From: Candidatus Methanophagales archaeon
GTDB taxonomy: Archaea; Halobacteriota; Syntropharchaeia; Alkanophagales; Methanospirareceae
Assembly: GCA_003336485.1 (NCBI GenBank)
Contig: QENH01000201.1
Coordinates: 10,704 to 74,703 of the forward strand
Direction of reading: 5' to 3'
DNA length: 64,000 nucleotides
The stretch's first letter is position 1. Every line of letters starts with the position of its first letter. The notes beneath the pieces are model-generated. The model ran no database searches and was not told where the DNA came from. It saw nothing but the letters and a program-made list of their open reading frames with translations. Positions 3,593 to 39,129 of this stretch are shown here, in pieces. The position numbers and the translations under genes are program-made.

Positions 3593-3632
3593 ATCTTTAA
3601 CTACATAAGCATAATATTGAGTGTGATTAAAC

Positions 3633-22151: not shown

Positions 22152-22947
22152 GGCTCCCATCCACTTTTGCTCGCCTAACGGCGAACTTAAACGCCATAAT
22201 ACTTAGCGGTAGCATCACTATTGAAAACAATAGTAGAGCAATTATGTCTGGAGCTAAGGCTTCTAAAGAGTATCCTTGCAATAGCGCATGCCGCATAGCA
22301 TTTAATGCATATGTTATGGGCAAGAAGTAAGAGAAGTATTGAAGCCATTGTGGCAGAACAGATATTGGGTATAAGACACCACCGAGTAGGCCGGACAGAG
22401 CGCTAAAAGCCCAGTTTATCGGATCGCCTCGTTTGAGTACCATGATAAAAGATGCCGATATTATCCCTAGACTGCTGAAGCAAATAATAGTCAGAATAAG
22501 AACGAGTATAGCAGCAAAAATATTCGCATTGCCCATATCTACGGCGAACAGAAACACGCCTATCAACAGATAGGCAAGAACCTGAATAGAAGCAAAAATG
22601 AAGTCCCAGAGCGAAGAGAACAAGATTAATACTGAGGCCTTCGTTGGAGTCGCGAGCATTGCTTCCAAAGTGCCCATCATCTGCTCATTCCTGATGCTGC
22701 CTGAGAAGCTTCTCAGTCCGGTCGTCAGATAAGTTGAAAATGCTATGCCAATAAGAACGAAGGAGAAATAATCGCCGCCATAGGGTTCAAGATACGGTAC
22801 GGCTGCGGTTCCAAACATCTTATCAAGGAAATAGAAGGTCAATACCGAGAAAAAAATGCCGAATAGTTGTAATAGAAACGCAAAGCGATAGCTTGTTGCG
22901 ATTATAAAATCCCTTTTGATGAATGTCAGTGCCTTTTTCGTTATCAT
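22138..22947 (-). CDS. ABC-2 type transporter permease
   Basis: Six predicted TM segments, co-oriented just downstream of the ABC ATPase. ORF track starts at 23022, but the likely start is MITKKALTFIKRDF. Confidence 0.7.
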   Translation of the reverse strand: MITKKALTFIKRDFIIATSYRFAFLLQLFGIFFSVLTFYFLDKMFGTAAVPYLEPYGGDYFSFVLIGIAFSTYLTTGLRSFSGSIRNEQMMGTLEAMLATPTKASVLILFSSLWDFIFASIQVLAYLLIGVFLFAVDMGNANIFAAILVLILTIICFSSLGIISASFIMVLKRGDPINWAFSALSGLLGGVLYPISVLPQWLQYFSYFLPITYALNAMRHALLQGYSLEALAPDIIALLLFSIVMLPLSIMAFKFAVRRAKVDGSLTQY

Positions 22948-22990
22948 GCATCTCCTCCAGTTTCCTTTACTCATCCACTCATTCACCCAT

Positions 22991-23986
22991 TCACTCATAA
23001 ATAAGTTGAGAGAAAATATCATTGATAACTATTTCTTTAGTGCTACAAGCATGTATTTGACCGCCGGTATTAACAATCATTGCAATTATTCGTGGTAGGA
23101 CGGATTCTGTATTAGAAAGCTGAATATCTAAGGTGACTGCATCAGAAGATGCATGCGTTGAGAACTCAATAACGCCATTTAAATCACGCAATTGGTCAAG
23201 CACGCTATTAGAAAGGTTTTTCACTTTAATAGCGTATATCTCGCGCTTCTCTATCATATCTCTTAGTTCGTTTAGCGTTCCATAGGCTTTAAATGTACCT
23301 CTGTTGATTATTGCAATTCTATCGCATATTTGTTCCGCTTCCTCCAAGTGATGAGTGGAAAGAAAAACCGTCTTTCCTTGTTCCTTTACCAATCGCTCTT
23401 TGATAAACGCCCTTAAATTCTGTGCTGCACTTGGGTCCAAGCTTTTGGTTGGCTCGTCCATAAGCAGAATTTCAGGCTCGTTAAGCAAGCCCCTTGCGAT
23501 TGCCATTTTTTGTTTCATGCCTGTAGAATAGCTATAGAATTTATCATCCGCCTTGTCTTCCAAGCCAACGAAATTCAATACATCGTTTACCCGCTTTTGT
23601 GCTACGGAAGCGGAGGAGAAATTATGGAGTGAAGCGAAGAAGATCATATTTTGGCGGCCAGTAAGTCGCCAGTAAAAGCTTCGCTCTTCGCTTGCCACAA
23701 GACCTATGGATGCCTTTACCCCCTCTTCTTCTTTTGTGACTTCATAACCATTTACATATGCTGTGCCGCTGGTGGGTAAAACCAACGTGCATAATACCTT
23801 TATTAAGGTGGTCTTGCCTGCGCCGTTGGGGCCAAGGATACCGAACAAATCACCTCTTCTGATTTTCAGGTTTACATTATCTAATGCAATTACCTCTTTC
23901 TTCTTGAGCGGATGCAATAACCCACTGAATCCCCCTGGCGGTATGAACTTCTTTGTTAGATTAAATGTCTCAATGGCGTATTCCAT
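22991..23986 (-). CDS. ABC transporter ATP-binding protein
   Basis: 331 aa; Walker A GPNGAGKTT, signature YSTGMKQK, Walker B LLMDEPT, H-loop LSTHH. Confidence 0.9.
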   Translation of the reverse strand: MEYAIETFNLTKKFIPPGGFSGLLHPLKKKEVIALDNVNLKIRRGDLFGILGPNGAGKTTLIKVLCTLVLPTSGTAYVNGYEVTKEEEGVKASIGLVASEERSFYWRLTGRQNMIFFASLHNFSSASVAQKRVNDVLNFVGLEDKADDKFYSYSTGMKQKMAIARGLLNEPEILLMDEPTKSLDPSAAQNLRAFIKERLVKEQGKTVFLSTHHLEEAEQICDRIAIINRGTFKAYGTLNELRDMIEKREIYAIKVKNLSNSVLDQLRDLNGVIEFSTHASSDAVTLDIQLSNTESVLPRIIAMIVNTGGQIHACSTKEIVINDIFSQLIYE

Positions 23987-24044
23987 CTTCCCTCATCACG
24001 CTAATCCACGTAATTATTTAAGGACATATCCACATATAAAACTG

Positions 24045-25232
24045 ATGCTAAACTTGTCGCCAGAAGATACCGTTCTGTTATGCTGCACGAGAACGAGCAT
24101 GAATAAAACCACCATATATAAACTCAAAGAGGCTTTAAGTAGACGATTGAACTGGAATCATATCTTAGAAAATGCTCTGCAACATGGTATTGCACCCTTA
24201 TTATATCACAATTTAAGTGAGATGGCTGATGTGCCAGAAGAGGTTATGGAACATCTGCGAATGCAGTATAATGCGAATCTTGCTCGGAACATGTTAGTTT
24301 ACAATGAGCTGAGCAATGTTTTAAATGCGTTTGAACACGCAGGGATAGAGGTGGTTGTTCTAAAGGGTGCTGCGCTTGCAGAGACGGTTTATCAAGATAT
24401 AGGTTTGAGACCTTTTAGTGACGTTGACCTTTTGGTTAGAAAGAAGGATTTGCAGAGGGCAAAAAAGAAGCTGGTTGAGCTGGGCTATATATTGGATGAG
24501 GATGTCTCGCCGGAGAGGTATAACGAGGATTTCGGTTGTGATTTGTATTATGCCGGCAAAGTAAATGTCCTGGAGATTCACTGGGATATAATGCGGAAGA
24601 CTAAAAGTGACAGATATGCGAGGATCAAAATAGAACATATCTGGGAAAGAGCAGTACCAGCGAAGATAGCAGGTGCTGATACACGCATGATGTCGCCGGA
24701 AGATATGCTGTTACACTTTTGTGTGCACCTACCAAAGCATCGCTATAATCGGTTAATCTGGCTATGTGACGTTTTAGAAGTTATAGAGCATACAGATATT
24801 GATTGGGGATATGTGCTAGAGAGCGCCAAAAAATACCGGACAATGGCGTATATGTACTATGGTCTACATTTTACGGATGTGCTATTAGGTTGTGATATAC
24901 CCGAAAAGGTACTAAACGCGCTGAAGCCGCATCGGCCCGAGATAATGGTGCTGAGCACGGTATTAAAAGATGTCTTGTCGCGCGAGCGGAAGATAATGCC
25001 GATTCTCAATTTGATGAAGTTATTGCTGATAGATAGATTTCAGGATAGAGTGAGATATTTATGTGAATATGTATTCCCACCAGTGGACTCGTTAGCACGT
25101 ATGTATTCGGTTTCGGGAAAAAAGGTGTATCTTTATTATTTCGTGCATCCCGTCTACGTGTGGCTTGAGACAGGCAAGCGCCTTATGGCAATCGTCAGTT
25201 CGAGAGCAAAGAAGCGTTACCGGTGGTTCTGA
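24045..25232 (+). CDS. putative nucleotidyltransferase (NTP_transf_5-like, family often found in RiPP/lasso clusters)
   Basis: ~396 aa from the ATG at 24045. The ORF-track extension from 23763 overlaps the ABC gene and reads as nonsense. GAALAETVYQDIGLRPFSDVDLLV matches the G...R.xxDxDLLV nucleotidyltransferase signature; helical C-terminal domain. Confidence 0.5.
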   Translation: MLNLSPEDTVLLCCTRTSMNKTTIYKLKEALSRRLNWNHILENALQHGIAPLLYHNLSEMADVPEEVMEHLRMQYNANLARNMLVYNELSNVLNAFEHAGIEVVVLKGAALAETVYQDIGLRPFSDVDLLVRKKDLQRAKKKLVELGYILDEDVSPERYNEDFGCDLYYAGKVNVLEIHWDIMRKTKSDRYARIKIEHIWERAVPAKIAGADTRMMSPEDMLLHFCVHLPKHRYNRLIWLCDVLEVIEHTDIDWGYVLESAKKYRTMAYMYYGLHFTDVLLGCDIPEKVLNALKPHRPEIMVLSTVLKDVLSRERKIMPILNLMKLLLIDRFQDRVRYLCEYVFPPVDSLARMYSVSGKKVYLYYFVHPVYVWLETGKRLMAIVSSRAKKRYRWF

Positions 25233-25253
25233 GTTGGTGTACGGAGACCAAAT

Positions 25254-25766
25254 TTATGTTTTATATACGACGGTAAAAAAGAGTTTCATAATTCTCCTCG
25301 CAATCCGATTCCCGTGCTTGAGATAATAAACCGAGCACGAAAAGAACGTTAGCATGAGATTGATAAACATCCCAAATCCGTTATTTAGTCTGATTATTCT
25401 GGTTCCTTTTCGTATTGCAATGACCTTGCCAATAACGTGTTCAGAACGGACGATCTCAGCAGTCGTTGTATTATCACCTTTTTGAAGAAAAGATAAACTA
25501 TCATATTTGCGAATGACCCTATGAACGATGAATTTATCGAGATTTTTGAACACGATAATGTCTCCAACCCGGATTTCAGCGGGTTTAACTGATTGAACCA
25601 GCACCTTATCACCGATTTGTATTAAAGGAATCATACTTCCGGAAAGAACAGTGAGCCACAACTTCTGCTTTTGGTTATACAGATCTTCCCAGAGGCCAAT
25701 GATTGCGTTTTGTGATAATTTCGGCTCTTGATCTAAATTCCCGTTGTTGTTGGTATAGCTTTGCAT
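25254..25766 (-). CDS. signal peptidase I, archaeal/eukaryal Sec11-SPC18 type (S26B)
   Basis: 170 aa; box B LSGSMIPLIQIGD, box C/D GDIIVFKNLDKFIVHRVI (His-type), box E KGDNTTT, C-terminal TM. Confidence 0.75.
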   Translation of the reverse strand: MQSYTNNNGNLDQEPKLSQNAIIGLWEDLYNQKQKLWLTVLSGSMIPLIQIGDKVLVQSVKPAEIRVGDIIVFKNLDKFIVHRVIRKYDSLSFLQKGDNTTTAEIVRSEHVIGKVIAIRKGTRIIRLNNGFGMFINLMLTFFSCSVYYLKHGNRIARRIMKLFFTVVYKT

Positions 25767-25856
25767 ATTTTGTATTTTCCCTGTTATTCCAATTGTTAGA
25801 AAGAATTGAGAAAATGCATAAGTAAGTAAGTAATTGTATATAATTTCTGTAATTGT

Positions 25857-25893
25857 AAAAAAATACCGCAGGGGCGAGCATAAACACGCCCCA
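25857..25893 (-). terminator. hairpin + oligo-T terminator-like element downstream of surface-protein gene A
   Basis: On the - strand: GGGGCG-tgtttatgc-TCGCCCC then tgcGGTATTTTTTT; one of three similar elements (see 35553 and 37501). Confidence 0.5.
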
Positions 25894-25930
25894 ACTCTTT
25901 CTTTTCTGTTATTTGTTTTACTATTTCACT

Positions 25931-28882
25931 TCATGGGTTTTTACGTATTTTTAATGGCCTACCTGATTGTGGAACACCAGTTACTACATGATGGTTGCCC
26001 ACAGCATCATCGTATTCCACTGTCCATTCTATCCCTTCGTTTGGATCCTGTGGATTGGTCATAGCCACCTCAAGCTCGAAGAAGTCATGACTCCAGGCAC
26101 CGCTACCTGCAGATATATCTCCCAATTCCACTTCACCATCAACGATGTTCACATTCGCAGGCGCATAGCTGATACTAGCAACTACGTTGTATGCGTCGCC
26201 GGGTCCGCAGTTCACAAAGTGAACGTCCATCCAGCTCCTGAAGAGGTCTGGTGACGGGTCCCATTCATAGCCTGGTATGTGGTATGCAGACCAGCGGTAT
26301 TTATCCGGACTAAGTTCTGGTTGTTGCACTTCGCGTACAATGATGTAATCCACCTTCGACTCCGTATCGCTGTCGCCATCCGCATCTGTTACCGTTAACG
26401 TTACCGTATAAGTCCCTTCTGTCGTGTACTCGTTCGTTGGGTTCTGATCCGTGCTTGTATCACCATCGCCAAAGTCCCAGTTCCAAGAGACTATGCAATC
26501 ATAGGAACGCGATAGATCAGTAAATTCAACGGTTAGAGGTGCGGATCCTGAAGTTGGTTCTGCATTGAAATCAGCAGTTGGCTCTGTATCTGTTACTGTC
26601 GCTGTCGTAGTATCAGGCTCTGAATCCTGATTACCGTCATTAACTACCAAAGTAACTGTATATGTCCCATCTTGTGTGTAATTATGACTTGGATTCACTC
26701 CTGTTCCGGTGTTCTCATCGCCGAAGTCCCAGTAGTAAGTTAGTGGCATGCCTTCCGGGTCATAAGAGCCAGAGCCACCAAATGCTATTGGAACGCCCTC
26801 AACGCCTGTGTAATTGCCATTTGCATCAGCTACTGGCGGTTGGTCTACGGATATCCCTTCATCTGTCGAATCTATAACATAGGGATGGTCAGAGATATCG
26901 CTAATAGGGACGTTATCTGCTAGAACAATGGTAGTATCTCTTGTTGAGACTCTAAGAACGAATGTAGCCGAGGGTTCCGGATCGGGTCCTGATTCTGGTA
27001 TCACAGTTATTCGATAAAACCCTATCTTTTTTTCTGTTAGTAATATTCTATCATCCAAATCGCCATCACCATCTATATCGGGTTCTATGTACATAGCACC
27101 TGGAATTTCATTTCCTTCTTTGTTTATGGTTAAATTATCGGGGTCCGTCAGAATTAACTCAATTGGATTGCAAATGCCGTCTATTTGCATCTGCCATTCA
27201 AAGGGTTCAATAGTAGCCGTGGTTGTGTTTACATCGTATGCTCCTTCATCGTCTGTTACGTTCAGTGAGACATTGTAAGTCCCATTTTTCAGGTATGTAT
27301 TCTCTGGGCTCTCGCCTGTTCCTGTGTTTCCATCGCCGAAGTCCCAGGCGAAGGAGGCAATGCTGCCGTCTAGGTCATAGGACCCGCTTCCGTTAAACAC
27401 TATCGGGTCTCCTTCCGTTCCGGTGTATGGTCCATTCGGGTCAGATACTGGCGGTATGTTCTCGCTCGTCACTGTTATATAATCCACCTTCGTCTCCGTA
27501 TCGCTGTCGCCATCCGCATCTGTTACCGTTAACGTTACCGTATAAGTCCCTTCTGTTGTGTACTCGTTCGTTGGGTTCTGATCCGTGCTCGTATTTCCAT
27601 CGCCAAAGTCCCAGTTCCATGTTGTAATACTATCGTATGATGTTGATTCATCTGTGAAGATAACTGTTAATGGCTTTAAGCCACTTGTCGGTGTAGCGGA
27701 GAAGTTTGCCGTTGGTTCGCTATCGTCAATCGTAGCCGTTGTTGTTTTCTCGTCGTATGCGCCTTCATCGTCTGTTACGTTCAGTGAGACAGTATAAATG
27801 CCGTCATCTACGTATATATTCATAGGATTCTCGCCTGTTCCTGTGTTTCCATCGCCGAAGTCCCAGGCATAGGTGGCAATGCTGCCGTCTAGGTCATAGG
27901 ACCCGCTTCCGTTAAACACTATCGGGTCTCCTTCCGTTCCGCTGTAAGGCCCATTCGGATCAGATACTGGCGGTATGTTCTGAGGTAGAGCGATAGTAAC
28001 AGCTCTAATTCTCTCGCTATTTGACCAGTCATCATCTATTGGAATACTTGCATTCACGATGATATTATACTCGCCAGGAGTAAGTGCACTTGTATTCCAG
28101 GAATCGCCGCCGCTCGGATAGAGATAATGACCCATCTTTATGGTCCATCTATGCGTAACTACTGTCTGAGTCCATGTTGAATTTGCAACTTTTACTGTTA
28201 CATCCACAGATTCATTATAATCCCCTTCATTCACAATTTTGTAGTAAATGCGATACGTGTTACCAATGGTCAAGTTCTCGCTTGCTGATATATCCGTTCC
28301 ATTATACTTGATTTTTATACCGTTCGTATCTGGCGCGTAATCCGTTGAGACGTTTATGTCATGAATCGGTACTGCATCACAGGAGAATATGCCGTCTATC
28401 GCAATACATGTATCGGGCGTTCCGGTTTGATCTGTACATGCAAGTCCTGTAAAGTTCAGATTCGAAACACCTACCGTAACAGGACTGAACGTCAACTTTG
28501 CGAGACAATATGTGCCTGCGGGTACACCACCACCCGAATACTGCAAGTCTACAAACGCTATCCTGTAGGTGTTAGGTGCACCTCCGGGTTTGTAGTTCCA
28601 GCTTTCAAGAGTAAATGCAGGACCTGTACCGGGTCCGGTGGTGTCACCACTGGTGATATTAACAATGGTTGAGTCAATAGTCAAGTCGGCGTTACAACTT
28701 TTAAATCCCGCATCAGTTGTGAAATTCAAGTTTACAATCACATCAGTACCAAGTGCCGAACTTCCGTGCTGTGGATCTAAGTAAAAGGTACCCGTCGCTG
28801 AGACCGCGTTAATGCAAACTGCTACTAGCAGTATACTTAATATCACTAAAATTTTATTGTTCATTTTTTTCTCTTTCACCAC
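25931..28882 (-). CDS. giant secreted scaffoldin-like protein: cohesin-like N-terminal domain, tandem PKD domains, conserved C-terminal module
   Basis: 983 aa; signal peptide. N-terminal ~140 aa align to the cohesin pattern of the pseudogene at 48131. At least five PKD domains (WDFGDGNT motifs). Last ~130 aa (YRWSAYHIPGYEWDP...VHFVN.GPG) are shared with gene 35631-37376. Likely ATG start at 28863. Confidence 0.7.
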   Translation of the reverse strand: MVKEKKMNNKILVILSILLVAVCINAVSATGTFYLDPQHGSSALGTDVIVNLNFTTDAGFKSCNADLTIDSTIVNITSGDTTGPGTGPAFTLESWNYKPGGAPNTYRIAFVDLQYSGGGVPAGTYCLAKLTFSPVTVGVSNLNFTGLACTDQTGTPDTCIAIDGIFSCDAVPIHDINVSTDYAPDTNGIKIKYNGTDISASENLTIGNTYRIYYKIVNEGDYNESVDVTVKVANSTWTQTVVTHRWTIKMGHYLYPSGGDSWNTSALTPGEYNIIVNASIPIDDDWSNSERIRAVTIALPQNIPPVSDPNGPYSGTEGDPIVFNGSGSYDLDGSIATYAWDFGDGNTGTGENPMNIYVDDGIYTVSLNVTDDEGAYDEKTTTATIDDSEPTANFSATPTSGLKPLTVIFTDESTSYDSITTWNWDFGDGNTSTDQNPTNEYTTEGTYTVTLTVTDADGDSDTETKVDYITVTSENIPPVSDPNGPYTGTEGDPIVFNGSGSYDLDGSIASFAWDFGDGNTGTGESPENTYLKNGTYNVSLNVTDDEGAYDVNTTTATIEPFEWQMQIDGICNPIELILTDPDNLTINKEGNEIPGAMYIEPDIDGDGDLDDRILLTEKKIGFYRITVIPESGPDPEPSATFVLRVSTRDTTIVLADNVPISDISDHPYVIDSTDEGISVDQPPVADANGNYTGVEGVPIAFGGSGSYDPEGMPLTYYWDFGDENTGTGVNPSHNYTQDGTYTVTLVVNDGNQDSEPDTTTATVTDTEPTADFNAEPTSGSAPLTVEFTDLSRSYDCIVSWNWDFGDGDTSTDQNPTNEYTTEGTYTVTLTVTDADGDSDTESKVDYIIVREVQQPELSPDKYRWSAYHIPGYEWDPSPDLFRSWMDVHFVNCGPGDAYNVVASISYAPANVNIVDGEVELGDISAGSGAWSHDFFELEVAMTNPQDPNEGIEWTVEYDDAVGNHHVVTGVPQSGRPLKIRKNP
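26335..26581. repeat. near-identical PKD-domain DNA repeat (partner 27460-27709)
   Basis: Encodes TADFNAEPTSG...WNWDFGDGDTSTDQNPTNEYTTEGTYTVTLTVTDADGDSDTE vs TANFSATPTSG..., with long identical nucleotide runs. Confidence 0.7.
27172..27451. repeat. near-identical PKD-domain DNA repeat (partner 27712-27985)
   Basis: Encodes PPVSDPNGPYTGTEGDPIVFNGSGSYDLDGSIASFAWDFGDGNTGTGE vs ...YSGTEG...SIATYAWDFGDGNTGTGE. Confidence 0.65.
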
Positions 28883-29400
28883 CTATTTTTATCTTTTGAT
28901 CCGTTGTTGCCACATCATGCGTACAATATCCTGCTTTAACAGCAACAACTTCATTCCAGCTTTTTTTCATAAATACCATGCTTTTTTCCTCCTTTTTTTC
29001 TTTGACTTTAACTTGAACATGAACAATTCAGAACAGAACCACTTACATAGTTATTCCAAATTGCTATAACGTCATTTGTATCTATAATGCCATTATCAAG
29101 TGCCGTGTCTGCTGCCCATTTGTTCTTTAAAGATATACCTGCAGTGTAACAATCCCAAACGGCTATAACATCCGTTGTGTCAACGCTACCATCTTCATTC
29201 GGATCTCCGCATATCCACTTCTTGGTCCTGAAGTTATTGCCCTCATTACTCTCACTCACCGTATTATTGCAATCTGCACATACTGTTATGTTATCCTCTA
29301 AAGGTGTATATACCCACATATAATCGAAACATCCAATATAACTCTCGTTATGTGATAACGCCTCAGTTACGCAATCGTATGCCACTTCAGTACCATCGAC
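28883..29400. repeat. cassette repeat: 5' leader of gene A plus the 3' CARDB-like/dockerin module of gene B (partner 32617-33150)
   Basis: Intergenic 28883-29007 vs 32617-32760 and coding 3' ends 29008-~29330 vs 32761-~33085 are >90% identical (the last ~110 aa of B and C are near-identical); identity decays further into the beta-helix region. Confidence 0.85.
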
Positions 29401-32400
29401 AAGCAGGGAAGTGTTATGCCCTGCCTGAGCGGTTCCAGTCCCTACGTTCGTTACGTTATAGCATATTGTGCAGTTTTCTGGCCAGCAGACCCATATACCC
29501 GTTATCTTCAGGTCCGGCAGCGATGTTGCTACTTCTACCAACGGATGCCAATCACCACCTTGCTTTATATTCCCAGAAGAATTATAAGGCCGCATTGTAT
29601 CTCCAAGTCCATCTTCATTGTTGTCAACGCCTATGTAATCGCCCCAATAGTTACCACCCAACCAAGAACCGCCGATTATGTTCTCGCCGGAAGTCGACGT
29701 GGTGTTCCATTCGTTGGTTCCATCATCATATGCGTTATTCGTATTGTCAAAGTAGTTGTTGTAGATGCTGTTATCGTCTGAAGATGTTAGATTGACGCCG
29801 ATGCCATTATTAGTTACGATGTTACCCGCGATCATAACGTTGTCAGAAACGTTCACCCAGATACCATCAGCATTATCGGTAATCATGTTCTCGCTGACAT
29901 TGACACCAGTAGGGAAACCCGCACCAACCGGTCTACTCCTCGGAGGTAGCATTGCCGAGCTATAATCTCCGTCCGGAAGTGCAAGAGCAGTTGGCTGCGC
30001 TGCTGCAACTCCCTCATTTTCGATCACCGGCATATCGTCATCGTCTGCCTCTATGCCACTTGCAAGACCAGCCATCGTACCAGAGCCAGAGACAGAATCG
30101 AGCATAAAACCGTAGTCACAGTTGTTAACTATGGTATTGCCATGAATTGCGACATTTGTGAAGGAAAACACTTTGATGCCATGAGCCTGATTTGATGCAG
30201 TGTTTTCTGCAATGTAGTTATCTGAGATAATGGCACCTGATCCCGCACCCATATAAATTCCGCATCCAAGAGTGTCGCTAACACCATTATTTATCATTGT
30301 ATTTCCCATAATCTTCAAGTTCGAGGGTCCATACGCAGCGAATATACCATGATAGAAGTTATTGGATGCCGTGTTATTGCAAATCGTAATGTTACTGGTT
30401 GGCGAGTGGTAAACAAAAATGCCATGATAGCCGTTGTTATTCGCATCGTTATCACAAATCGTGGCGTTGCTACTTTGGTATACTAGGATTCCATGTGCCT
30501 CACACTCCGAAGCAATGTTATTGATAACGGTGTTGTTAGAAGATGCGCTATAAAGATATATACCATACGCATTCTGCCTTGCAATGTTATCAGTCATTAT
30601 CGCATTATTGGATGCCCATGATAGAAGTCCTGTCCCGACATCGGTAAGATTGTTGTAATTAACATTGTTCCCCGAGACTACACTATTATCGGAATGATAC
30701 AGACGTATACCCTCCCAACCATTATGATTTGCTGTGTTGCCGACCAGATAGTTGTAATCGGAATAGGTGATACATATACCCATATATATCTCATTGAATC
30801 TTGCTGAATTGTTGATCACATGATTGTTATCGGATTTATATAAATAAATACCATACCAACAGTTCGAATCCGCGGTATTGTCAATAATGGTGTTGCTATC
30901 TGCGAAATATAAAGAAATACCCCTATGGTTCTGTGTGCAGTTGTTATTCGAAATGCGGCAGTGGCTCACGCCTTTATTAAGATAAATCCCTGCCTTACCC
31001 TCCGTAGCGCCTCCCCGTATGGTAAACCCACTGATATTGACATGACCCATATAGATATCAAAGACATGGTCAGCTATATCTGCTGCACTCACAATACAGT
31101 TTGCAGACCCATTTGCCGACCGGATTGTTAACTGTTCGAGGACATCTACATTCTCAGTGTAAGTCCCATCATGCACGATTATCGTATCGCCTGCATTTGC
31201 ATTACTTACCGCAGATTGTATCGGCGTTGCACTCGGATTAACAGGGTCGGGCTCAATCCACCAGCCAATTTCATTGACATAAATAGTACGCGGTGGAACT
31301 TCTGGTTTCGTAAGCGGCAGAAGATCTATGTTATTTGTCGTTAAAATATAAGGGTCATCACAGATCCCATCGCCATCTGTATCGGTGCACATCTCCGAGA
31401 ATCCGGTGCCGGACGGTGTTGCCCAATAGTTCCCTCCCAGATATGAACCGCCAACAATGTTTGTTTCCAATGTTTTGGGAATGTTCCAGTCGTTCGCATA
31501 GACAGTTGTACCAGCAAAATTGATGTTCTTCGCATTGCAGAAATAGTTGTTATGAATTAGATTTGCACCTGCAGCTTTTATGTTTATTCCCCCGTCAACA
31601 TTGTTTCTTATGTACGAGTTATTGATTATTGTAGATGAACTGCTGTCGACATAGACCCCCGCAAAACTGTTAGTGCCAGACGCAATGTGTGTTAACTTGT
31701 TGGATGGGCTATGAAAAAGATAGATGCCGCATTGAGAGTTAGAATTCGTTTCTGTACTTTCCAGTGTGTTGAAGGAACAGTAGCAAACATAAATGCCTTG
31801 GTGATGGTTGTTGTTGCATTTAATATTCTGCAACTTGTTTGTGTCGGCATTGTCGAGGAGGACGCCACAGAAATTATTGGATGATACAATATCCGTTAGA
31901 TTTGTGTTGTCTGTATAAAATAGACGCAAACCGTTGTTCTTCAAGCTGTCCGAGCCTCGGATTGTAATGTTATTCAGTACAGAGTTATCGGCATTGCAGA
32001 GGTACAGAGCAGAAAACACCTGATCTTGTAGATTTACCGATTGATTGTAAAACGCAATTGGTCTGCCTCCGGAACCAGTTACATTTATCAGACGGTTGTT
32101 GCACTCAGACAGTGAATTTGGTCGAAAATAGAAGTCATAATGTGAATTCTCCTGCAGAATACAATCGCGTATTGTGTTTGCAGTGCTATAAAAAATCGTG
32201 ATTCCAGCATCGCGATTGGAATATGCCGTTATATTTTGTATTGTGTTATTGGACGCTTTAAATAGTTCGATACCATAGCGGAAACCAGTAATTTCGCAGT
32301 TCTTTAACGTATTATCGTCTGAGTCGCTTGATAGATAGATTCCAAAACCGGAGAAGTCGCCATCTCCAGAGATTATATGACCTCCGCCGTTAAAAGTTAT

Positions 32401-32616
32401 GCCATCCTTGCCATTGAACTCGATGCAGGTGCCGTCATGACCGATTATGTCTGCAGTGAGCATAACCTCGTCACCATAGCTTGCACTCTGTATCTTCGTG
32501 TTGCAGTCTGAGCAGTTGACGCAGGTCGTCAACGCATTTACTGAGGGTACCAATACCAGCATAAAAATGACGAGTGCCAATGCCATTCCCAATTTTATCC
32601 GTTCTTCTCTTCCCAT
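29008..32616 (-). CDS. giant secreted parallel beta-helix protein with CARDB-like domain and C-terminal type-I dockerin
   Basis: 1202 aa; signal peptide; dozens of PbH1-like rungs; C-terminus [19 protein letters not shown]...[17 protein letters not shown] is two dockerin-type Ca-binding repeats; ends NCSCSS. Confidence 0.75.
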   Translation of the reverse strand: MGREERIKLGMALALVIFMLVLVPSVNALTTCVNCSDCNTKIQSASYGDEVMLTADIIGHDGTCIEFNGKDGITFNGGGHIISGDGDFSGFGIYLSSDSDDNTLKNCEITGFRYGIELFKASNNTIQNITAYSNRDAGITIFYSTANTIRDCILQENSHYDFYFRPNSLSECNNRLINVTGSGGRPIAFYNQSVNLQDQVFSALYLCNADNSVLNNITIRGSDSLKNNGLRLFYTDNTNLTDIVSSNNFCGVLLDNADTNKLQNIKCNNNHHQGIYVCYCSFNTLESTETNSNSQCGIYLFHSPSNKLTHIASGTNSFAGVYVDSSSSTIINNSYIRNNVDGGINIKAAGANLIHNNYFCNAKNINFAGTTVYANDWNIPKTLETNIVGGSYLGGNYWATPSGTGFSEMCTDTDGDGICDDPYILTTNNIDLLPLTKPEVPPRTIYVNEIGWWIEPDPVNPSATPIQSAVSNANAGDTIIVHDGTYTENVDVLEQLTIRSANGSANCIVSAADIADHVFDIYMGHVNISGFTIRGGATEGKAGIYLNKGVSHCRISNNNCTQNHRGISLYFADSNTIIDNTADSNCWYGIYLYKSDNNHVINNSARFNEIYMGICITYSDYNYLVGNTANHNGWEGIRLYHSDNSVVSGNNVNYNNLTDVGTGLLSWASNNAIMTDNIARQNAYGIYLYSASSNNTVINNIASECEAHGILVYQSSNATICDNDANNNGYHGIFVYHSPTSNITICNNTASNNFYHGIFAAYGPSNLKIMGNTMINNGVSDTLGCGIYMGAGSGAIISDNYIAENTASNQAHGIKVFSFTNVAIHGNTIVNNCDYGFMLDSVSGSGTMAGLASGIEADDDDMPVIENEGVAAAQPTALALPDGDYSSAMLPPRSRPVGAGFPTGVNVSENMITDNADGIWVNVSDNVMIAGNIVTNNGIGVNLTSSDDNSIYNNYFDNTNNAYDDGTNEWNTTSTSGENIIGGSWLGGNYWGDYIGVDNNEDGLGDTMRPYNSSGNIKQGGDWHPLVEVATSLPDLKITGIWVCWPENCTICYNVTNVGTGTAQAGHNTSLLVDGTEVAYDCVTEALSHNESYIGCFDYMWVYTPLEDNITVCADCNNTVSESNEGNNFRTKKWICGDPNEDGSVDTTDVIAVWDCYTAGISLKNKWAADTALDNGIIDTNDVIAIWNNYVSGSVLNCSCSS

Positions 32617-32760
32617 TTTCTTTTCTTCCTTTTTACCACCTATATTTTTATCTTCTGATGTGCTGTTGCCGCATCATGCGTGCAATATCCTACTCTAACA
32701 GCAACAACTTCATTACTGCTTTTTTCATGAATACATTGTTTATTCCCCGCCTCTTTTTCT

Positions 32761-35472
32761 TTAACCTGAACATGAGCAATTCAGAACAGAACCACTTACA
32801 TAGTTATTCCAAATTGCTATAACGTCATTTGTATCTATCACGCCATTATCAAGTGCCGTGTCTGCAGCCCATTTGTTCTTTAAAGGGACGCCTGCAATGA
32901 AATAATCCCAAACGGCTATAACATCCGTTGTGTCAACGCTACCATCTTCATTCGGATCTCCGCATATCCACTTCTTGGTCCTGAAGTTATTGCCCTCATT
33001 ACTCTCACTCACAGTATTATTACAATCTGCGCATACGGTTATGTTATCCTCTAAAGGTGTGTACACCCACATATAATCGAAATATGCGATGTAGCTCTGG
33101 TTATGCTCAAGTGCTACAACTACACAATCGTATGCCCGCATAGTACCGTCAACAGATAGCGAAGTGTCATGCCCAGCCAGAGCGGTTCCAGTTCCTATGT
33201 TCGTTACGTTATAGCATATGGTGCAGTTATCGGGCCAGCAGACCCTTATGTCTGTTACCTTCAAGTCAGGCAGTAATACCGCTTCTTCCGTCAACGGATG
33301 CCTATCCCCTCCCGTTGTTATATTGCCCGACGAGTTATAAGGAAGCAGTGTATTTCCTAAGCCATCGCCATCGTTATCTACGCCCGCATAATCGGACCAA
33401 TAATTCCCGCCAAGATAATGACCGCCGATTATGTTCGTTCCCTCTCTTTTCGTAATGTTCCATGCGTTGTTGCCGTTATCATTAGCATTATTCGTGTTCT
33501 CGAAGTAGTTATTGTAAATCAGGTTATTGCCGCTCGAATCGTACAGGTAGATGCCAAATCCGTTGTTCGAGTTCGCAGTGTTGTCCGAGATGTTGTTGTA
33601 GTGCGACTCGGACAAGCCGATGCCAGCCCAGTTGCCCGATGCGGTAATATCGGAAACGTTGCTGTAATCAGCATAGCTGAGATAAATCCCTGCCTTAGCG
33701 TCTTCTGTTGCGCCCGTTACATGGAACCCGGATATATCCACATAATCCGCAGTCACCTCAAAGACATGATCATCAGAATCAGCAGCCTGAACAATTGTAT
33801 CCGCGTGATTACCTGATGTTGATCTTACGGTCAAAGACTTGTAAACAGCCACATTCTCTGTATAAGTCCCCGGATCTACAATAATTGTATGCCCATCCAA
33901 GGTATTGGGGTCATCTATTGCCGCTTGGATAGTTACGAAACTTTCGCTTGTGTTTATATTGTAAATCGGAGGTACTCTAGCCACTATTCTAGTACGTAGA
34001 CAAGCGTTCCAACCTTCGTCTGCCAGATCCGTCCACGAACCGCTATCAGTGTGCCTGATAAAGCTCACATTCGTCTGTATAGGAGGATCAACCACCCCTG
34101 AAAATTCACACTCAATAGGTATAGGGTGACCATAGCCCGGTGTGGTCATCTTAACGCCAACAGTAAATTGCTGACCAGCGTATATTGAAATCGAGTCGCT
34201 CAGTGGTATCGAGTAATAGCCAAACTCTTGACAGTTACCGATTTGATGCGCAAGCTCAGTACCAAAAAAGCCGTCCCAAATATATATTTCATACTGCGCA
34301 TTGTTGCTCGTGGTCCAGAAATCAACATGGGTTAAATCACCAAACTGAATTGCTGTATAGACACTTGCCATCCAAGCACTGTTGTCCCCATAGCCCACAG
34401 AAGCTACGAAGCCTGCCTCATCCCAGTAACGAAGTTCTTCATTCGGGTTGTCATCCGTATATTTAAGATATGCTATTTCATTGACACAACTTGAGTCATA
34501 AGCAAGATAGAAGAAACCATTATTCCCCCAACCTGTTCCCCAACTGTTTTTGGCTATCCAGGCTCCTATTCCTGCATGGCTGGGGTTGGGATGTGGAACA
34601 GCATCGTCCCAACCGATAATAGATACTAAGTGGTTAATGTTTCCAGAGCATGGATAGTTGTCGTAAATATACCCATAAGTCGAATTCCAGTATAGATAAC
34701 TTGGATCGTGCTGGTAAGCCACTATAACGGGTTCCTGATTATATACCGCATTTTTTATCGCGTCTATTTGTGACCCGTCATTCGTTACAAGTCTATATCC
34801 GTTAACTTTCTTAATTGGAGGGCAATCATCACATACACACGAGCCATCACAGTTCAATGCGTAGCCGCCGTAAGGATTGCATGTTTCCGAAACAGAACCT
34901 TTCCTGATAAAAACCTCGCTTGCAAGCCAACTCCAGCCACCTGCATTACAGGGGTCATCCGAGTCGTCATACATATAAACCCATGAACGGTCAACGCACA
35001 AGGCTACGCTCTGCTCAGAAAAATTGTATGCTGCTCCTTCATCCATTAGAACCGCCGATTCTAATACCGAGGTAGTGCCAAAAACCCAACAAGTCTCACA
35101 AGGGTCCTGGTCCTTGACCGTTGTCACCTTACCGTAATCGCGCCAGTCGAAGCTGCTGGGGAGTGCGTATGGCGCCGGCAACCCTTTAACTGGAAGCTGA
35201 TCCAGGTGACTTAAATCCACGGGTGGTGGAATATAGCCATAAAATGTCTCGGTTGGATTATCCCGATGTGCTTCAAAATCGGGATTTAGTGGAGCCAATT
35301 GAGGTTTTTCCGCTGCTCCGCCTCCATCTCGGCTATCGTCAGTAGCCGCGCTAATTCCAGCAGACAATGTTAGTGCACTTGTAACTACGGTCAGTATCAA
35401 TATTGCCGCTGTCAATATGGCTATTGGTTTTTTCATCGCATTCATATTCTCTACTATAAAACAATTGTGCAA
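32761..35472 (-). CDS. secreted papain-like (C1) cysteine peptidase fused to beta-helix, CARDB-like domain and C-terminal dockerin
   Basis: 903 aa; signal peptide/TM anchor; C1 active-site blocks [11 protein letters not shown] (Cys), [10 protein letters not shown] (His), [16 protein letters not shown] (Asn); C-terminal ~110 aa near-identical to gene B including the dockerin repeats. Confidence 0.75.
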
Positions 35473-35552
35473 ATCACCATATATTCTTTTGTTTTTTTTT
35501 CAGCAACTTCATGGATTTGCACCATGCAAGTGACATCGTTTTTCTTTTTTTT

Positions 35553-35590
35553 CTAAAAAATAACGCCGGGGCGAATGAACTCACCCCAAC
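35553..35590 (-). terminator. hairpin + oligo-T terminator-like element downstream of gene D
   Basis: On the - strand: GGGGTGAGTTCATTCGCCCC then GGCGTTATTTTTT; homologous to the element at 37501-37541. Confidence 0.5.
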
Positions 35591-35630
35591 TCTTTTTGCA
35601 CTTTGTTTTATATTTCACTTCATTGGCTGT

Positions 35631-37376
35631 TTACGAGGGCGCACAGAATTCCGGAACATTCTCTATCACATGATACACACCATCCGCATCGTAGTATTCC
35701 ACCATCCATAGTATTCCTTCCTCAGGAGGCGGTAGTGGCACGTAGGTCATATCCACCGCAAGCACGAAGAAGTCCGAACTCCAAGCGCTTCCGGAAGCTG
35801 GTATATCTCCCAACGTCACTTCTCCGTCCACGATGCCCACATTCGCCGGGGAATCGGTGATGGTTGCAGTTACGCCGTAAGCGTTACCGGGTCCCCAGTT
35901 CACGAAGTGAACATCCGTCCAGCTCCTGAATAGTGCCGGGAACGGGTCCCATTCATAGCTTGGGACATGGTATGCAGACCAGCGATATTCATCCGGGCAG
36001 AGATTCGCCTCGCCAACAATGACTTTCCATTCCTTAGTCACTTGGTTCGAGGTTATGGTGACCTCTTGGCTATTCACAAAACTCGCTTCGATAACATCCG
36101 TGCCAGGCAAGGTCCCTGTGTAGGTAAACGTTGCTTCTCCATTGACGTCAGTTGTATCTGTGTCTGTCTGCCCATCATGTGGACCTGAAACGATAGTGAA
36201 GGTCACTTCACGGTCCACGATCGGGTTCCCTAAGTCATCCTGCACCGTTGCGGTAACTGTATGCTCGCTGCCTACCGGATTGGTTGCAGAGGTTGGAGTT
36301 AACAGAATACCTTCTCCCACGACTGCTGTTGTAGACGCAAGGAACAGCGATGCAAAGAAGATGTTGTCGTCGTTCGATGGATTTATGGTATCAACGAATA
36401 TATTGGTATCTCCATCCGATACGAATGGTATGAGATTGTACAATTCGTCGTCATAACGGGGACTGGTACTATCACCATTTGCGTAAGGATCGGGTGGGTT
36501 GGCATTGCTATCTCCCACGCCTCCGACCGTCAGAAGTGCACCGTTGTTCGCTGATCCATCATCTTGACCACCGGCTGATGATGTCAAACGCACGCCATTA
36601 ACATCCACTTCGCTGTGTTGGCCATAATACGAGGAAGATTGGTAGCCAAATGATATCCCTAGAGACATATCGAGCACTAGGTTCGGGTCGCTCGTATCGA
36701 TCGGTTCAGCTAATCCAATTGCGAAAGTATCGCCCGCAACATCCTGCGCTCCGAAAAGAAGCACAATTGTGTTTTCGGTCGCCTGGTTCGGATCATCGAA
36801 GATTACCGCTAGGATTGAACCGTCAAGATTGATCGTTTCGATGATCTCAAGATCCACAATTCCCGCTGGTGCCGCATCAACGATGGGCGCTACGATTGCA
36901 GTCACATCAGACCATGCACTGTTTGCATTCACGGGATCATGGCTATCCCAGTTGACGTTGTTGCCGTTGATCTTTACGGCTCCGTCCGGCAATGGCCCGC
37001 CACAACTGCCCCAGACATCGGCTGCCGCCATATAGGCTGACCTAACCGTTGCTCCGGCTGGCTTTTCCACCTGGATAGTTCCAGCAGAGGTAAATGTGCC
37101 GAGGCCATCTATCGAGAGACTGATCAGTCCGGTTTCTGTAATCTCCGGATCGATTGAGCGCGTCGGTGTCGATAGTTTACTTGTAGCCATATCAGTTCCT
37201 GGTACATTTGGGTCCGCAGATGGTTTAGTGTCCTCCAATGACGAAGGTATCTTGCCAATAATATTCGATTTACTTGGGACCGCATATACCGGTGTAGCAA
37301 ATGCTGATAAAATCAACACAATTACTAAACAAATGCACGCACCTGTTACATAGCTTTTTCTTTCCATTTTTTTCAT
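35631..37376 (-). CDS. secreted Ig-like (Big) domain protein with the C-terminal module shared with gene A
   Basis: 581 aa; signal peptide; Big-like domain (VTATVQDDLGNPIVDREVTFTIVSGPHDG); C-terminal ~130 aa ~60% identical to the C-terminus of 25931-28882. Confidence 0.65.
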   Translation of the reverse strand: MKKMERKSYVTGACICLVIVLILSAFATPVYAVPSKSNIIGKIPSSLEDTKPSADPNVPGTDMATSKLSTPTRSIDPEITETGLISLSIDGLGTFTSAGTIQVEKPAGATVRSAYMAAADVWGSCGGPLPDGAVKINGNNVNWDSHDPVNANSAWSDVTAIVAPIVDAAPAGIVDLEIIETINLDGSILAVIFDDPNQATENTIVLLFGAQDVAGDTFAIGLAEPIDTSDPNLVLDMSLGISFGYQSSSYYGQHSEVDVNGVRLTSSAGGQDDGSANNGALLTVGGVGDSNANPPDPYANGDSTSPRYDDELYNLIPFVSDGDTNIFVDTINPSNDDNIFFASLFLASTTAVVGEGILLTPTSATNPVGSEHTVTATVQDDLGNPIVDREVTFTIVSGPHDGQTDTDTTDVNGEATFTYTGTLPGTDVIEASFVNSQEVTITSNQVTKEWKVIVGEANLCPDEYRWSAYHVPSYEWDPFPALFRSWTDVHFVNWGPGNAYGVTATITDSPANVGIVDGEVTLGDIPASGSAWSSDFFVLAVDMTYVPLPPPEEGILWMVEYYDADGVYHVIENVPEFCAPS

Positions 37377-37500
37377 TTCACCTCCTAATTTTTTGGGGTA
37401 TTTATATAGCGCCCCTCCTCGGCGCCCTCTCCCTATTTCTCAGCCATCTAATGGATTCGCACCATACAGATGACATCTTTTTCATTGCTTTTCGTTCTGG

Positions 37501-37541
37501 CAAAAAAAAATAACGCCAAGGCGAGTGAACTCACGCCTCCT
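37501..37541 (-). terminator. hairpin + T9 terminator-like element immediately after the 46-aa ORF
   Basis: On the - strand: GGCGTGAGTTCACTCGCC then TTGGCGTTATTTTTTTTT, ~35 nt after the peptide stop codon. Confidence 0.5.
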
Positions 37542-37564
37542 CGACGCTCTTATTTGGTCACCAT

Positions 37565-37705
37565 TCATCCTTCATTTCCTCCGCCTCCACAGCATAGATT
37601 AAAAAATGGGTCCATCTGCGGAATAGGCCCTTCATATTGACCATAAGCTCCGATTTCGATCGTTTCTGACTTGACCTCAGGCTTATTGTATTCTTCTCGT
37701 TTCAT
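37565..37705 (-). CDS. 46-aa candidate RiPP precursor peptide (MKREEYNKPEVKSETIEIGAYGQYEGPIPQMDPFFNLCCGGGGNEG)
   Basis: Unannotated short ORF. Its ATG overlaps the last 23 nt of the rSAM/SPASM gene. A canonical Shine-Dalgarno AAGGAGGTGA sits 12 nt upstream. Stop is followed by a hairpin + T-run. C-terminal Cys-Cys-Gly4 core-like segment. Confidence 0.45.
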   Translation of the reverse strand: MKREEYNKPEVKSETIEIGAYGQYEGPIPQMDPFFNLCCGGGGNEG

Positions 37706-38822
37706 CTTCTTTTTTTATCACCTCCTTTTGGTTTTTTGTAATACCGCCCGGCTCAAAGCCGGGACTCTGCATTACCGTGACTTGCGAAGATCCCCGCCAT
37801 TGTGCGTACCTACATGCGCTCGGCGATGCCCCCACTATATCGCCTGTTTCAAGATAAACCACACCGGGACATCTAATGCAGTACTGTGCCAAATCACACT
37901 TGGAACACACGGGTAAATCAGCGGAAGTTAAATTCCGCAATCGTTTCAACTCTTCGCTTGGCTGCATATGCCATATCTCTTTAAAACTCCTTTCTCTCAA
38001 ATTACCTACCGCCATAGGCATCATCACGCATGGACACACAATCCCGCTTGGTGATACGCTGCAAGCTGCGTTCCCAGCTTTGCATTTGAATCTATGCGCA
38101 GGATCTTTTTCGCCTATTTCTATTAGATAACTGAGATCAAAATCGTGTCTCGGCAGATATCTCTCCATGTCCTCAAAGGATAGGTCGTACTGTTGAGGTT
38201 CTAACGAGCCGTTCTTCATCGGCGCGATTCCTGCACTTATCCTGTGACGGACACCTAACTGTTCACACATAGCTTTGAGATCGTCGGATTCATGGATATT
38301 CAAATTCATAAGTGATGTTTTTACGGTAACTTCTATTCCCGCCTTGACCAGATCCTTGATAGCAGCAACGGTGCGTTCAAAAGAGCCCGCTACCCGAGTA
38401 ATGTGATCATGCGTTTTTGCTGTTGCGCCATAGAGACTGAGTTCAAACTTAATCAGCTTCAGCGTCCTTATTTCGTCCATCATTTCAGCGGTAATCAACG
38501 CGCCATTGGTCATAAACGTAAGGAAAAAGCCTTTTCTACTGGCATATCTCGCAATCTCAAACAAGTCATCACGAGTGAAAATCTCGCCACCTGTAAAGGA
38601 AAGGTAAAAGGTACCCATATCCACTAGTTGGTCTATTATGTCTTTAATCTCCTCTGACGACAATTCAACGTCATTATCATTTACCATATAACAATGCCTG
38701 CATTTTAGATTGCATTTACTTGTAAGTTCCATTTGAACAGCATAAGGTATATTTTCCCGAATGCAGGTCGCAACCAACTTTTTACCCAAACCCGTAGAGT
38801 ATTCAACGGTCATCGCCACCAC
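37683..38822 (-). CDS. radical SAM / SPASM-domain peptide-maturase-like enzyme
   Basis: 379 aa; CNLKCRHCY (CxxxCxxC) rSAM cluster near the N-terminus; C-terminal SPASM Cys constellation (CKAGNAACSVSPSGIVCPC...CSKCDLAQYCIRCPG). Confidence 0.85.
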   Translation of the reverse strand: MVAMTVEYSTGLGKKLVATCIRENIPYAVQMELTSKCNLKCRHCYMVNDNDVELSSEEIKDIIDQLVDMGTFYLSFTGGEIFTRDDLFEIARYASRKGFFLTFMTNGALITAEMMDEIRTLKLIKFELSLYGATAKTHDHITRVAGSFERTVAAIKDLVKAGIEVTVKTSLMNLNIHESDDLKAMCEQLGVRHRISAGIAPMKNGSLEPQQYDLSFEDMERYLPRHDFDLSYLIEIGEKDPAHRFKCKAGNAACSVSPSGIVCPCVMMPMAVGNLRERSFKEIWHMQPSEELKRLRNLTSADLPVCSKCDLAQYCIRCPGVVYLETGDIVGASPSACRYAQWRGSSQVTVMQSPGFEPGGITKNQKEVIKKEDETRRIQ

Positions 38823-39129
38823 CTTCTGCTTCTGTTTCTGCTTCGGCGTTTCTAATCTGCAAAATCTTTTTCGCTACCAGTTGCTCTGCAAATTCCTGTA
38901 CATCTGCCTGTGCTACTTCAAGACTTACATCAAAACGCTCACAAGTCAGCGATATTATTTCTTTTATCCTTCTTGTACCATCGGCTAATTCCCAGATAGC
39001 ACTTCCTACCTTGTTAAGCGTGTGAATCGCACGCCCATCTGCAGTTAGAATAACGACTCCATCGCCTATCTCTCGCCATACTAATTCATCCGACCTACGT
39101 AGGTAGCTATCTAACGGAAACATATTCAC
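38803..39129 (-). CDS. PqqD-family protein (RiPP recognition element)
   Basis: 108 aa; PqqD pattern (VILTADGRAIHTLNKVGSAIWELADGTRRIKEIISLTCERFDVSLEVAQADVQEFAEQL); overlaps the upstream kinase (ATGA) and the downstream rSAM gene by 20 nt. Confidence 0.7.
   Translation of the reverse strand: MNMFPLDSYLRRSDELVWREIGDGVVILTADGRAIHTLNKVGSAIWELADGTRRIKEIISLTCERFDVSLEVAQADVQEFAEQLVAKKILQIRNAEAETEAEGGGDDR

Follow-up and report, generated by a model that had tools for sequence, protein, structure and literature searches.

A 64,000-nucleotide stretch of DNA from a Candidatus Methanophagales archaeon (GenBank assembly GCA_003336485.1, contig QENH01000201.1, positions 10,704 to 74,703; called the window below, G+C content 42%) contains four successive genes for secreted modular proteins, here named D, C, B and A. 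Genes B and C end alike, and the likeness runs on through the spacer that follows each of them; how this shared 3' end arose is the subject here. All positions are in the numbering of the 64-kb stretch, and all four genes lie on its minus strand.

35631-37376, minus strand: gene D, secreted, Big_1-containing (Pfam), its C-terminal ~125 aa in common with gene A (protein alignment).
32761-35445, minus strand: gene C, secreted papain-family (C1) protease with lectin-like, NosD/beta-helix, CARDB and dockerin regions (Pfam).
32617-32760, minus strand: C-B spacer, 144 nt, 82% identical to the B-A spacer.
29008-32616, minus strand: gene B, secreted, 1202 aa, two NosD/right-handed beta-helix blocks, CARDB (Pfam) and dockerin (by profile).
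28865-29007, minus strand: B-A spacer, 143 nt.
25931-28864, minus strand: gene A, signal peptide, divergent cohesin-like N-terminal domain, CARDB-like region, five PKD units and the C-terminal module shared with gene D.

Gene C encodes 894 aa counted from the ATG at 35445 (the open reading frame (ORF) finder starts it at a TTG at 35472), and its product is 100% identical to P0032, RCV62722.1, "Cysteine protease [Methanophagales archaeon]". Gene B matches the Pfam families NosD (1e-91), Beta_helix (3e-59) and CARDB (1e-10), and gene A matches PKD_4 (2e-98). The gene A product is identical to P0160 (RCV62719.1); its start is the ATG at 28864, and the GTG at 28882 chosen by the ORF finder falls within a Shine-Dalgarno-like GGTGGTGA. 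Exact-sequence look-up of the gene B protein and of P0032 returned no record. In a single scan of genome contigs, run with gene C, the only matches were remote NosD fragments from other archaea, none of them an orthologous locus, and the dockerin module with its spacer is absent from all loci found by that scan.

Genes B and C have their last ~770 nt and the following ~143-nt spacer in common, and the likeness stops at the ATG of the next gene. A repeat search reports two direct repeats, 28999-29298 versus 32752-33051 (94% over 300 nt) and 28884-28966 versus 32643-32725 (88% over 83 nt), while blastn merges the whole into one alignment, 28864-29774 versus 32621-33527 (81.6% over 916 columns, E reported as 0), and finds no third copy within the window. 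The duplication, first noticed in a reading made from the sequence only, is borne out by both searches and by the other assemblies described below. That sequence-only reading had put the last ~330 nt of the two genes above 90% identity, in agreement with 94% over 300 nt and 94.6% over 29329-29015, and the intergenic regions at 125-145 bp, which accords with spacers of 143-144 nt once gene A is started at ATG 28864. Its figure of more than 90% for the spacers is too high, as the alignment, with 25 mismatches over 137 paired positions and 8 gap columns besides, gives 82%.

Nor does identity decay gradually upstream, as had been proposed. A change-point fit on the pairwise alignment resolves discrete tiers of 73.3%, 94.6% and ~74%, with sharp boundaries at 29329/29330 and 29014/29015; the log-likelihood rises from -480.6 with no breakpoint to -442.4 with two. 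The third tier runs from the stop codon onward, and upstream of ~29775 the likeness of B and C is found at the protein level only. The two coding tiers are as follows.

33083-33525, minus strand: older tier, C copy.
29330-29772, minus strand: older tier, B copy, covering the last part of the NosD block and the greater part of CARDB, 73.3% identical to the C copy, dS (synonymous divergence) ~1.05, saturated.
32768-33082, minus strand: young high-identity tract, C copy.
29015-29329, minus strand: young high-identity tract, B copy, the last two CARDB strands, linker and dockerin, 94.6% identical over 315 nt.

The copies of the young tract differ at 17 sites and share an identical run of 109 nt (29259-29151). 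Divergence was estimated from Nei-Gojobori counts for dS and dN (its nonsynonymous counterpart) and by the Jukes-Cantor distance K for the spacer. The older tier has a dS of 1.05 and a dN of 0.22, the young tier a dS of 0.185 and a dN of 0.034 (dN/dS about 0.18), and the spacer, with K = 0.209, stands at the level of the young tier. Third codon positions differ at 62 of 151 in the older tier against 11 of 107 in the young (Fisher p = 3e-8), and four-fold degenerate sites at 24 of 47 against 5 of 37 (p = 4e-4). A run of 40 codons without a third-position change was reached in none of 20,000 permutations (p < 5e-5). Neutral divergence differs about five-fold between adjoining homologous segments, and its low value across ~460 nt (315 coding plus the spacer) implies a younger shared ancestor for that part, the mark left by gene conversion or recombination. 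Between themselves the B and C dockerins agree at 94.4%, whereas their identity to this dockerin type in the relatives L027 and L028, whose genes need not be strict orthologs, is 72-76%; in both tiers, B is closest to C and C to B.

We consider it probable that the 3' ends of B and C have been homogenized by gene conversion between tandem paralogs of a cohesin-dockerin cluster of ANME-1 (group 1 of the anaerobic methanotrophic archaea). Recombination or gene conversion had been suggested from the sequence alone, and the suggestion is upheld by the fall in dS from 1.05 to 0.185 at ~29330, by the site tests and, if it is real, by a mosaic haplotype described below. The accompanying words "near-identical" and "recent" overstate the case, a dS of ~0.19 not being very recent. 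Likewise the "dockerin module" said to make up the cassette does include the dockerin, but it is no clean module. The young tract begins within the CARDB fold, in strand 5 of an AlphaFold model, and not at a domain border; this fits homologous recombination, whereas domain-wise shuffling would break at the border.

In the course of events that we envisage, B and C would be tandem paralogs that inherited an old homologous 3' region, comprising the NosD end, CARDB, dockerin and the spacer up to the next ATG. Later, non-reciprocal homologous recombination would have overwritten ~460 nt of one copy with the sequence of the other, in a tract that begins within CARDB, takes in the dockerin and the stop codon and extends into the spacer. 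Purifying selection (dN/dS about 0.18) would have acted on the coding part from then on, with the spacer drifting neutrally. Such an event is of a known kind, gene conversion between tandem paralogs, in a poorly studied archaeal cohesin-dockerin cluster. Conversion between tandem prokaryotic surface-protein genes (concerted evolution) likewise gives tracts of a few hundred nt with synonymous divergence far below that of the flanks, tract boundaries that ignore domain borders, non-coding DNA carried along, and mosaic haplotypes in related populations, of which the L022 patch described below may be one. Unlike dedicated variation systems, the locus has no silent cassette archive, recombinase or repeated switch signals that we could see; only two partners take part, and a dS of ~0.19 points to infrequent events.

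Other assemblies of the locus were found by searching with the N-terminus of gene A and with the CARDB-dockerin tail. A 4007-bp ENA scaffold (L022; ERZ23495601, labeled SAMN03857199) is 99.4% identical to window 31636-27858 (3.8 kb). The GenBank scaffold LGVF01291281.1 was recovered in two pieces, one (L026) matching 30831-27858 at 99.7% and the other (L029) matching 33137-30928 at 99.1%. Between them these scaffolds reproduce both copies and both junctions (C-spacer-B and B-spacer-A), by which an artefactual duplication is effectively ruled out. LGVF01291281.1 has a B-type B copy and a C-type C copy, as in the window, while L022 is a mosaic.

29086-29278, minus strand: C-type patch in the B dockerin of L022, with the C-copy base at 12 of the 12 sites that differ from the window.

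L022 carries 20 substitutions relative to the window, 14 of them within the repeat and all 14 matching the window's C copy; outside the repeat the divergence is ~0.2%. B-type bases are retained at 29311, 29308, 29284, 29260 and 29023, so that distances of just 6 nt (29284/29278) and 9 nt (29269/29260) separate B-type from C-type sites. As far as assembler behavior can be judged, such spacing speaks against a simple graph path switch between the two known haplotypes. The mosaic B gene with its C-type dockerin patch is either a real conversion polymorphism or an effect of assembly. Because one assembly of the locus carries such a patch, exchange between the B and C dockerins is probably still ongoing in the population. 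Of the checks named in the sequence-only reading, that for an assembly artefact is answered by the junctions, which recur in two other metagenome assemblies, and comparison of strains gives the L022 patch, whether real or of assembly. At the equivalent of window position 32966, L029 has a 15-nt duplicated stretch followed by NN, and because this lies within the 109-nt identical run, it is exactly there that short-read assemblers struggle. L022 and L026 both break off or diverge at 27858, the start of the PKD repeats of gene A.

On its sequence features, the shared segment is assigned as the final part of a CARDB domain followed by a type I dockerin (PF00404). Homologs of the 170-residue tail occur at 50-56% identity in ANME-1-type metagenomes (one of them named Methanophagales), and most carry precomputed CARDB and Dockerin_1 (PF00404) matches. 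CARDB (PF07705) scores 41.7 bits in gene B and 39.9 bits in gene C against a cut-off of 22.7. An AlphaFold model of the tail from 21 sequences has a pLDDT (predicted local distance difference test) of 89.8. With the whole module, Foldseek retrieves the CARDB part only, the beta-sandwich of the model matching the CARDB structures 2l0d (E 1e-6), 2kl6 and 3idu. The last ~70 residues were matched by a profile of 16 family tails to the PDB dockerins 8x39, 4fl4, 2mte, 1daq, 2ccl and 1ohz, with E from 7e-15 to 2e-7; the single gene B tail reaches 12.9 bits against PF00404 (E 0.13), under the cut-off of 22.9. The model places dockerin helices at residues 115-127 and 148-160 (pLDDT about 90). Segment 1 is canonical, and segment 2 has a one-residue insertion and a non-canonical calcium loop (DTALDNG).

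As in type I cellulosomal dockerins (1ohz, 2ccl, 1daq, 4fl4), the domain is C-terminal, of ~70 residues, with two tandem calcium-loop and helix segments. The norm for such a segment is ~22 residues, a loop D-x-N/D-x-D-G...D and then a helix, and the B and C tails have both segments. Unlike the cellulosomal case, the host is an archaeon (ANME-1) and not cellulolytic, and in this family the dockerin without exception follows a CARDB domain in the same protein and has a conserved Cys-x-Cys tail. Across the family (alignments A2 and A3; P0001-P0023) the two segments average 81% identity within a protein, some reaching 100% over 20 residues, and 37% between proteins, a pattern typical of internal symmetry with variable specificity residues. 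Dual binding is the property classically associated with such internal symmetry of dockerins. A single specificity type (…IDT[NS]DVIAIWNN…), with the atypical second calcium loop, is common to B, C, L027 and L028. Elsewhere in the CARDB-dockerin family, P0010 has three dockerin segments and P0018 one extra, and nearly all members keep a C-terminal L-N-C-x-C motif as well as several cysteines.

The cluster plausibly encodes one protein with a putative cohesin (A) and two with predicted dockerins (B and C). By adjacency and weak homology, the cohesin-like N-terminal domain of gene A would be the best candidate partner of the B and C dockerins, and homogenization of the tails would then keep B and C on the same dockerin specificity, docking to the same cohesin partner. 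The gene A domain scores 19.3 bits against Pfam Cohesin (PF00963; E 0.0014), below the cut-off of 24.1. Exhaustive phmmer aligns it with Pfam-called cohesin regions of P0156 (E 5e-6) and P0157 (E 1e-5). A PDB sequence search gave no match for the domain, and its AlphaFold model, from two sequences, is too poor to use (pLDDT 47.5). At L027 the window's dockerin type again stands directly upstream of an A-like gene. That locus (Ga0190316_1005126, 64-4043) has three cohesin-type genes in a row and then the A-like gene; one of the three has a PGF-CTERM anchor, and another combines cohesin, CARDB and the window's dockerin type, so the adjacency of dockerin type and A-like gene is kept despite a different body on the dockerin protein. 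One further locus, L033, covers the 3' end of gene A only. The cluster members P0161 and P0162 proved to be short repeats without relation to it.

The N-terminal part of gene A also occurs on a virus- or mobile-looking contig (L023 9985-11059 and L024 1375-2449; Logan SRR29278628 and SRR29278629) whose other contents are an MCM (minichromosome maintenance) helicase, a Gp3-like protein, MazE and many small ORFs. The contig encodes P0028, a protein of 352 aa; over its first 511 nt, the P0028 gene matches the 5' end of gene A (28880-28370) at 85.5% identity, with 83% aa identity over 165 residues. This part covers the signal peptide and cohesin-like domain; beyond it P0028 bears no relation to gene A, and the protein terminates in a hydrophobic anchor. 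A mobile element could here share a docking domain of its host's surface.

Several points weigh against conversion within a cohesin-dockerin cluster as just described. With runs of 109 and 62 nt identical between the copies, the L022 patch could be an assembly effect; six single-nucleotide differences from the window are common to L022 and the LGVF scaffold, which may be one sample, yet the two disagree in the patch. Outgroup bases match the B type 13 times and the C type 16 times, which fixes neither the direction nor the number of conversion events. The cohesin assignment of the gene A N-terminal domain, made from sequence, is weak. Finally, two spacer copies give low power for detecting selection or covariation.

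A different origin for the shared tail would be lateral cassette replacement, in which B, C or both received it from another strain or from a paralog elsewhere in the genome, and not from each other, the same popular cassette arriving twice. The CARDB-dockerin tail is found on many unrelated N-terminal bodies in ANME-1 metagenomes, and the protease and lectin body in turn occurs with dozens of C-terminal architectures. At L025 the nearest ortholog of the protease half of gene C (85% nt identity over 1.7 kb) has another tail, without CARDB and with another dockerin type; at L027 it is a cohesin-containing protein that bears the window's dockerin type; and the virus-like contig has the gene A N-terminal domain at 85.5% nt identity. 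All of this is compatible with lateral supply, but B and C are nearest to each other in both tiers, their adjacency favors intrachromosomal conversion, the L022 patch equals the neighboring C copy at 12 of 12 sites, and the 64-kb window has no third copy. We regard lateral replacement as unlikely.

A wider possibility, to which we give about the same small weight, is that the CARDB-dockerin tail with its trailing spacer is a recurrently exchanged cassette in ANME-1 rather than the product of a one-off conversion. Frequent conversion among surface-protein genes and strains might then re-wire which enzymes dock on which cell-surface scaffold, and viruses or mobile elements with the matching cohesin-like domain might possibly be involved. 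If true, this would amount to cassette-based remodeling of the cell surface in uncultured methane-oxidizing consortia. Chadwick et al. 2022 (PMC9012536) report an abundance of secreted dockerin and cohesin proteins in ANME-1 genomes, the domains joined to them varying widely, and the present cluster is an example of such repertoires. The portion of that source drawn on here gives domain inventories, without conversion tracts between neighboring dockerin genes or strain mosaics.

The likeness of the spacers had been read as conservation of a 5' leader at the DNA or RNA level, so their elements have to be considered.

28993-28988, minus strand: AGGAGG, in the B-A spacer only; the C-B copy is degenerate and reads GAGGCGGGG.
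28979-28854, minus strand: 41-codon ORF, B-A spacer, preceded by AGGAGG and overlapping the start of gene A.
28949-28942 and 28910-28903, minus strand: inverted repeat GTTGTTGC/GCAACAAC, B-A spacer, perfect 8-bp stem with a 31-nt loop.
28893-28884, minus strand: A/T-rich box GATAAAAATA, B-A spacer.
28883-28876, minus strand: Shine-Dalgarno-like GGTGGTGA, B-A spacer.
32708-32701 and 32669-32662, minus strand: inverted repeat of the C-B spacer, imperfect, 7 pairs and one G-U.
32652-32641, minus strand: A/T box, retained in the C-B spacer.
32640-32635, minus strand: GGTGGT, also retained in the C-B spacer.

Under this alternative the spacer would be a functional leader or intercistronic regulatory RNA, its hairpin and upstream ORF controlling translation or stability of the next gene, and selection would have kept it. 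Mononucleotide shuffling of the spacer yields a perfect 8-bp stem only ~1.4% of the time, which is mildly unusual and not compelling, and the one base by which the C-B stem differs still pairs (U-A to U-G). The ORF of the B-A spacer (AGGAGG-N8-ATG) ends 8 nt past the gene A ATG and could couple translation, and the likeness of the spacers reaches exactly to the next start codon. Against this, the spacer K of 0.21 equals the adjacent neutral dS of 0.185, so that shared age fully explains the likeness and selective conservation is not needed. The folds are no more stable than those of shuffled sequence, with z of -0.07 for the B-A spacer as a whole and of -0.27 and -0.39 in the hairpin regions, and in the C-B spacer the minimum-free-energy fold pairs differently. 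Rfam gives no match at E <= 1 across 25700-38000. Neither the AGGAGG nor the ORF is conserved between copies: an A-run 1 nt shorter in the C-B spacer shifts the frame and leaves ORFs of 3 and 12 codons, and in the homologous frame the copy differences, counted by eye, are mostly non-synonymous. A gene caller did call the 41-aa ORF in L022. A search of the window for the spacer core, allowing up to 3 mismatches, finds the B-A copy itself only, and there is none in the fetched loci and no hit in viral contigs. L027 likewise has an A-like gene behind this dockerin type, with a spacer of just 68 nt between them; it retains the 5' AGGAGG region, the 3' A/T box and GGAGGTGA, and has no counterpart of the ~75-nt core that bears the hairpin.

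A functional leader is on this evidence improbable, and the hairpin, which gives no sign of function, and the short ORF would be passengers. What had been described as a conserved 8-bp-stem hairpin is perfect in the B-A spacer, but the C-B copy has 7 pairs and a G-U; the short ORF is indeed frame-shifted between the copies, by 1 nt in the A-run, but its AGGAGG occurs in the B-A spacer only. Functional conservation of the leader is not supported, given its neutral-rate divergence, z values of -0.07 to -0.39, the lack of an Rfam match at that threshold and the core missing in L027. An origin of the ~75-nt core as a miniature inverted-repeat transposable element was considered; its inverted repeats are sub-terminal and it is absent in L027, with only two copies, which are linked. 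Within the spacer, only the last ~35 nt (the A/T-rich box and GGTGGT) seem to have a function, that of starting translation, transcription or both at the next gene. The box is centered ~24 nt before the ATG and is followed by GGTGGT, in a geometry resembling that upstream of gene D. Scans for sigma-70 promoters gave match counts at or below chance, with a model that is not relevant to an archaeon. A terminator-like hairpin follows gene A, as listed here.

25858-25895, minus strand: terminator-like G+C hairpin and T-run, after gene A (repeat family D7, terminator scan).

Related hairpins stand behind gene D (35555-35592) and behind a small peptide gene (37505-37542), and there is none after B or C. 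C, B and A may therefore form a single transcript, in which case the supposed leaders may be intercistronic spacers.

A single old duplication with no later exchange would require that the 3' end look young through strong constraint on the dockerin, synonymous sites included. Tract dN is very low (0.034) and dockerins must match their partner, but four-fold sites and third positions drop as well, the non-coding spacer beside the tract is equally low in divergence, and DNA identity to this dockerin type in L027 and L028 is no higher than 72-76%, which means that synonymous sites are free to change; this explanation is very improbable. That the duplication is an assembly artefact, whether a collapsed or duplicated repeat or a chimeric join, is hardly credible: the 109-nt identical run, the NN gap and short duplicated stretch of the LGVF scaffold within it at 32966, and the common end of L022 and L026 at 27858 in the PKD repeats do invite the suspicion, but the copies differ at 17 tract sites and throughout the spacer, both reading frames are intact, and both junctions recur in other assemblies.

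Gene conversion between B and C would make the locus a concrete case, with a date attached, of how ANME-1 comes by its large and variable dockerin/cohesin repertoire and keeps it coherent, the tails being homogenized between neighbors while the N-terminal bodies diverge or are swapped. The cluster also nominates a candidate cohesin-dockerin pair, the gene A N-terminal domain with the B and C tails, in an uncultured lineage. Public assemblies disagree within the 109-nt identical run, and variants there need checking against reads. The spacer "hairpin" should not enter catalogs as an RNA element.

Genes A and D form a second pair in the cluster with a shared 3' end, 25858-26308 versus 35555-35996 (72% over 461 columns, blastn). 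Their common C-terminal module of ~125 aa has no Pfam match (…YRWSAYH.P.YEWDP.P.LFRSW.DVHFVN.GPG…). Here the shared coding part is saturated at synonymous sites, and 82 aligned nt downstream differ by only 17%. Homogenization or recent duplication acts inside gene A too, because its PKD units are alike at the DNA level (26343-26485 versus 27477-27619, 95.8%; 27207-27462 versus 27726-27981, 88%). The motif GATGTCAYYTGYATGGTGCRAATCCAT is common to 35496-35587 and 37436-37537 on the minus strand, just past terminator-like hairpins and upstream of genes C and D. It has a short palindrome (CATGG-N7-CCATG in the copy upstream of C) and may be a shared operator or promoter element.

Upstream of gene D, at 37565-39129 on the minus strand, lies a trio resembling those for ribosomally synthesized and post-translationally modified peptides.

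38803-39129, minus strand: PqqD-like protein (Pfam 1e-16).
37683-38822, minus strand: radical SAM/SPASM enzyme.
37705-37565, minus strand: 46-codon ORF, absent from the ORF list, MKREEYNKPEVKSETIEIGAYGQYEGPIPQMDPFFNLCCGGGGNEG.

At 116-1252, L025 has the same radical SAM gene (82% nt identity) and a 47-aa peptide with the same ...LCCGGGG tail, directly upstream of its gene C ortholog. The other side of the cluster (22138-25766) holds an NTP_transf_5 gene, an S24/S26 peptidase and an ABC (ATP-binding cassette) transporter. Farther off in the window, 51090-53855 on the minus strand encodes a 921-aa protein with novel-STAND NTPase domains, and 44413-47832 on the plus strand a 1139-aa protein with a Laminin_G_3 (concanavalin-like) domain.

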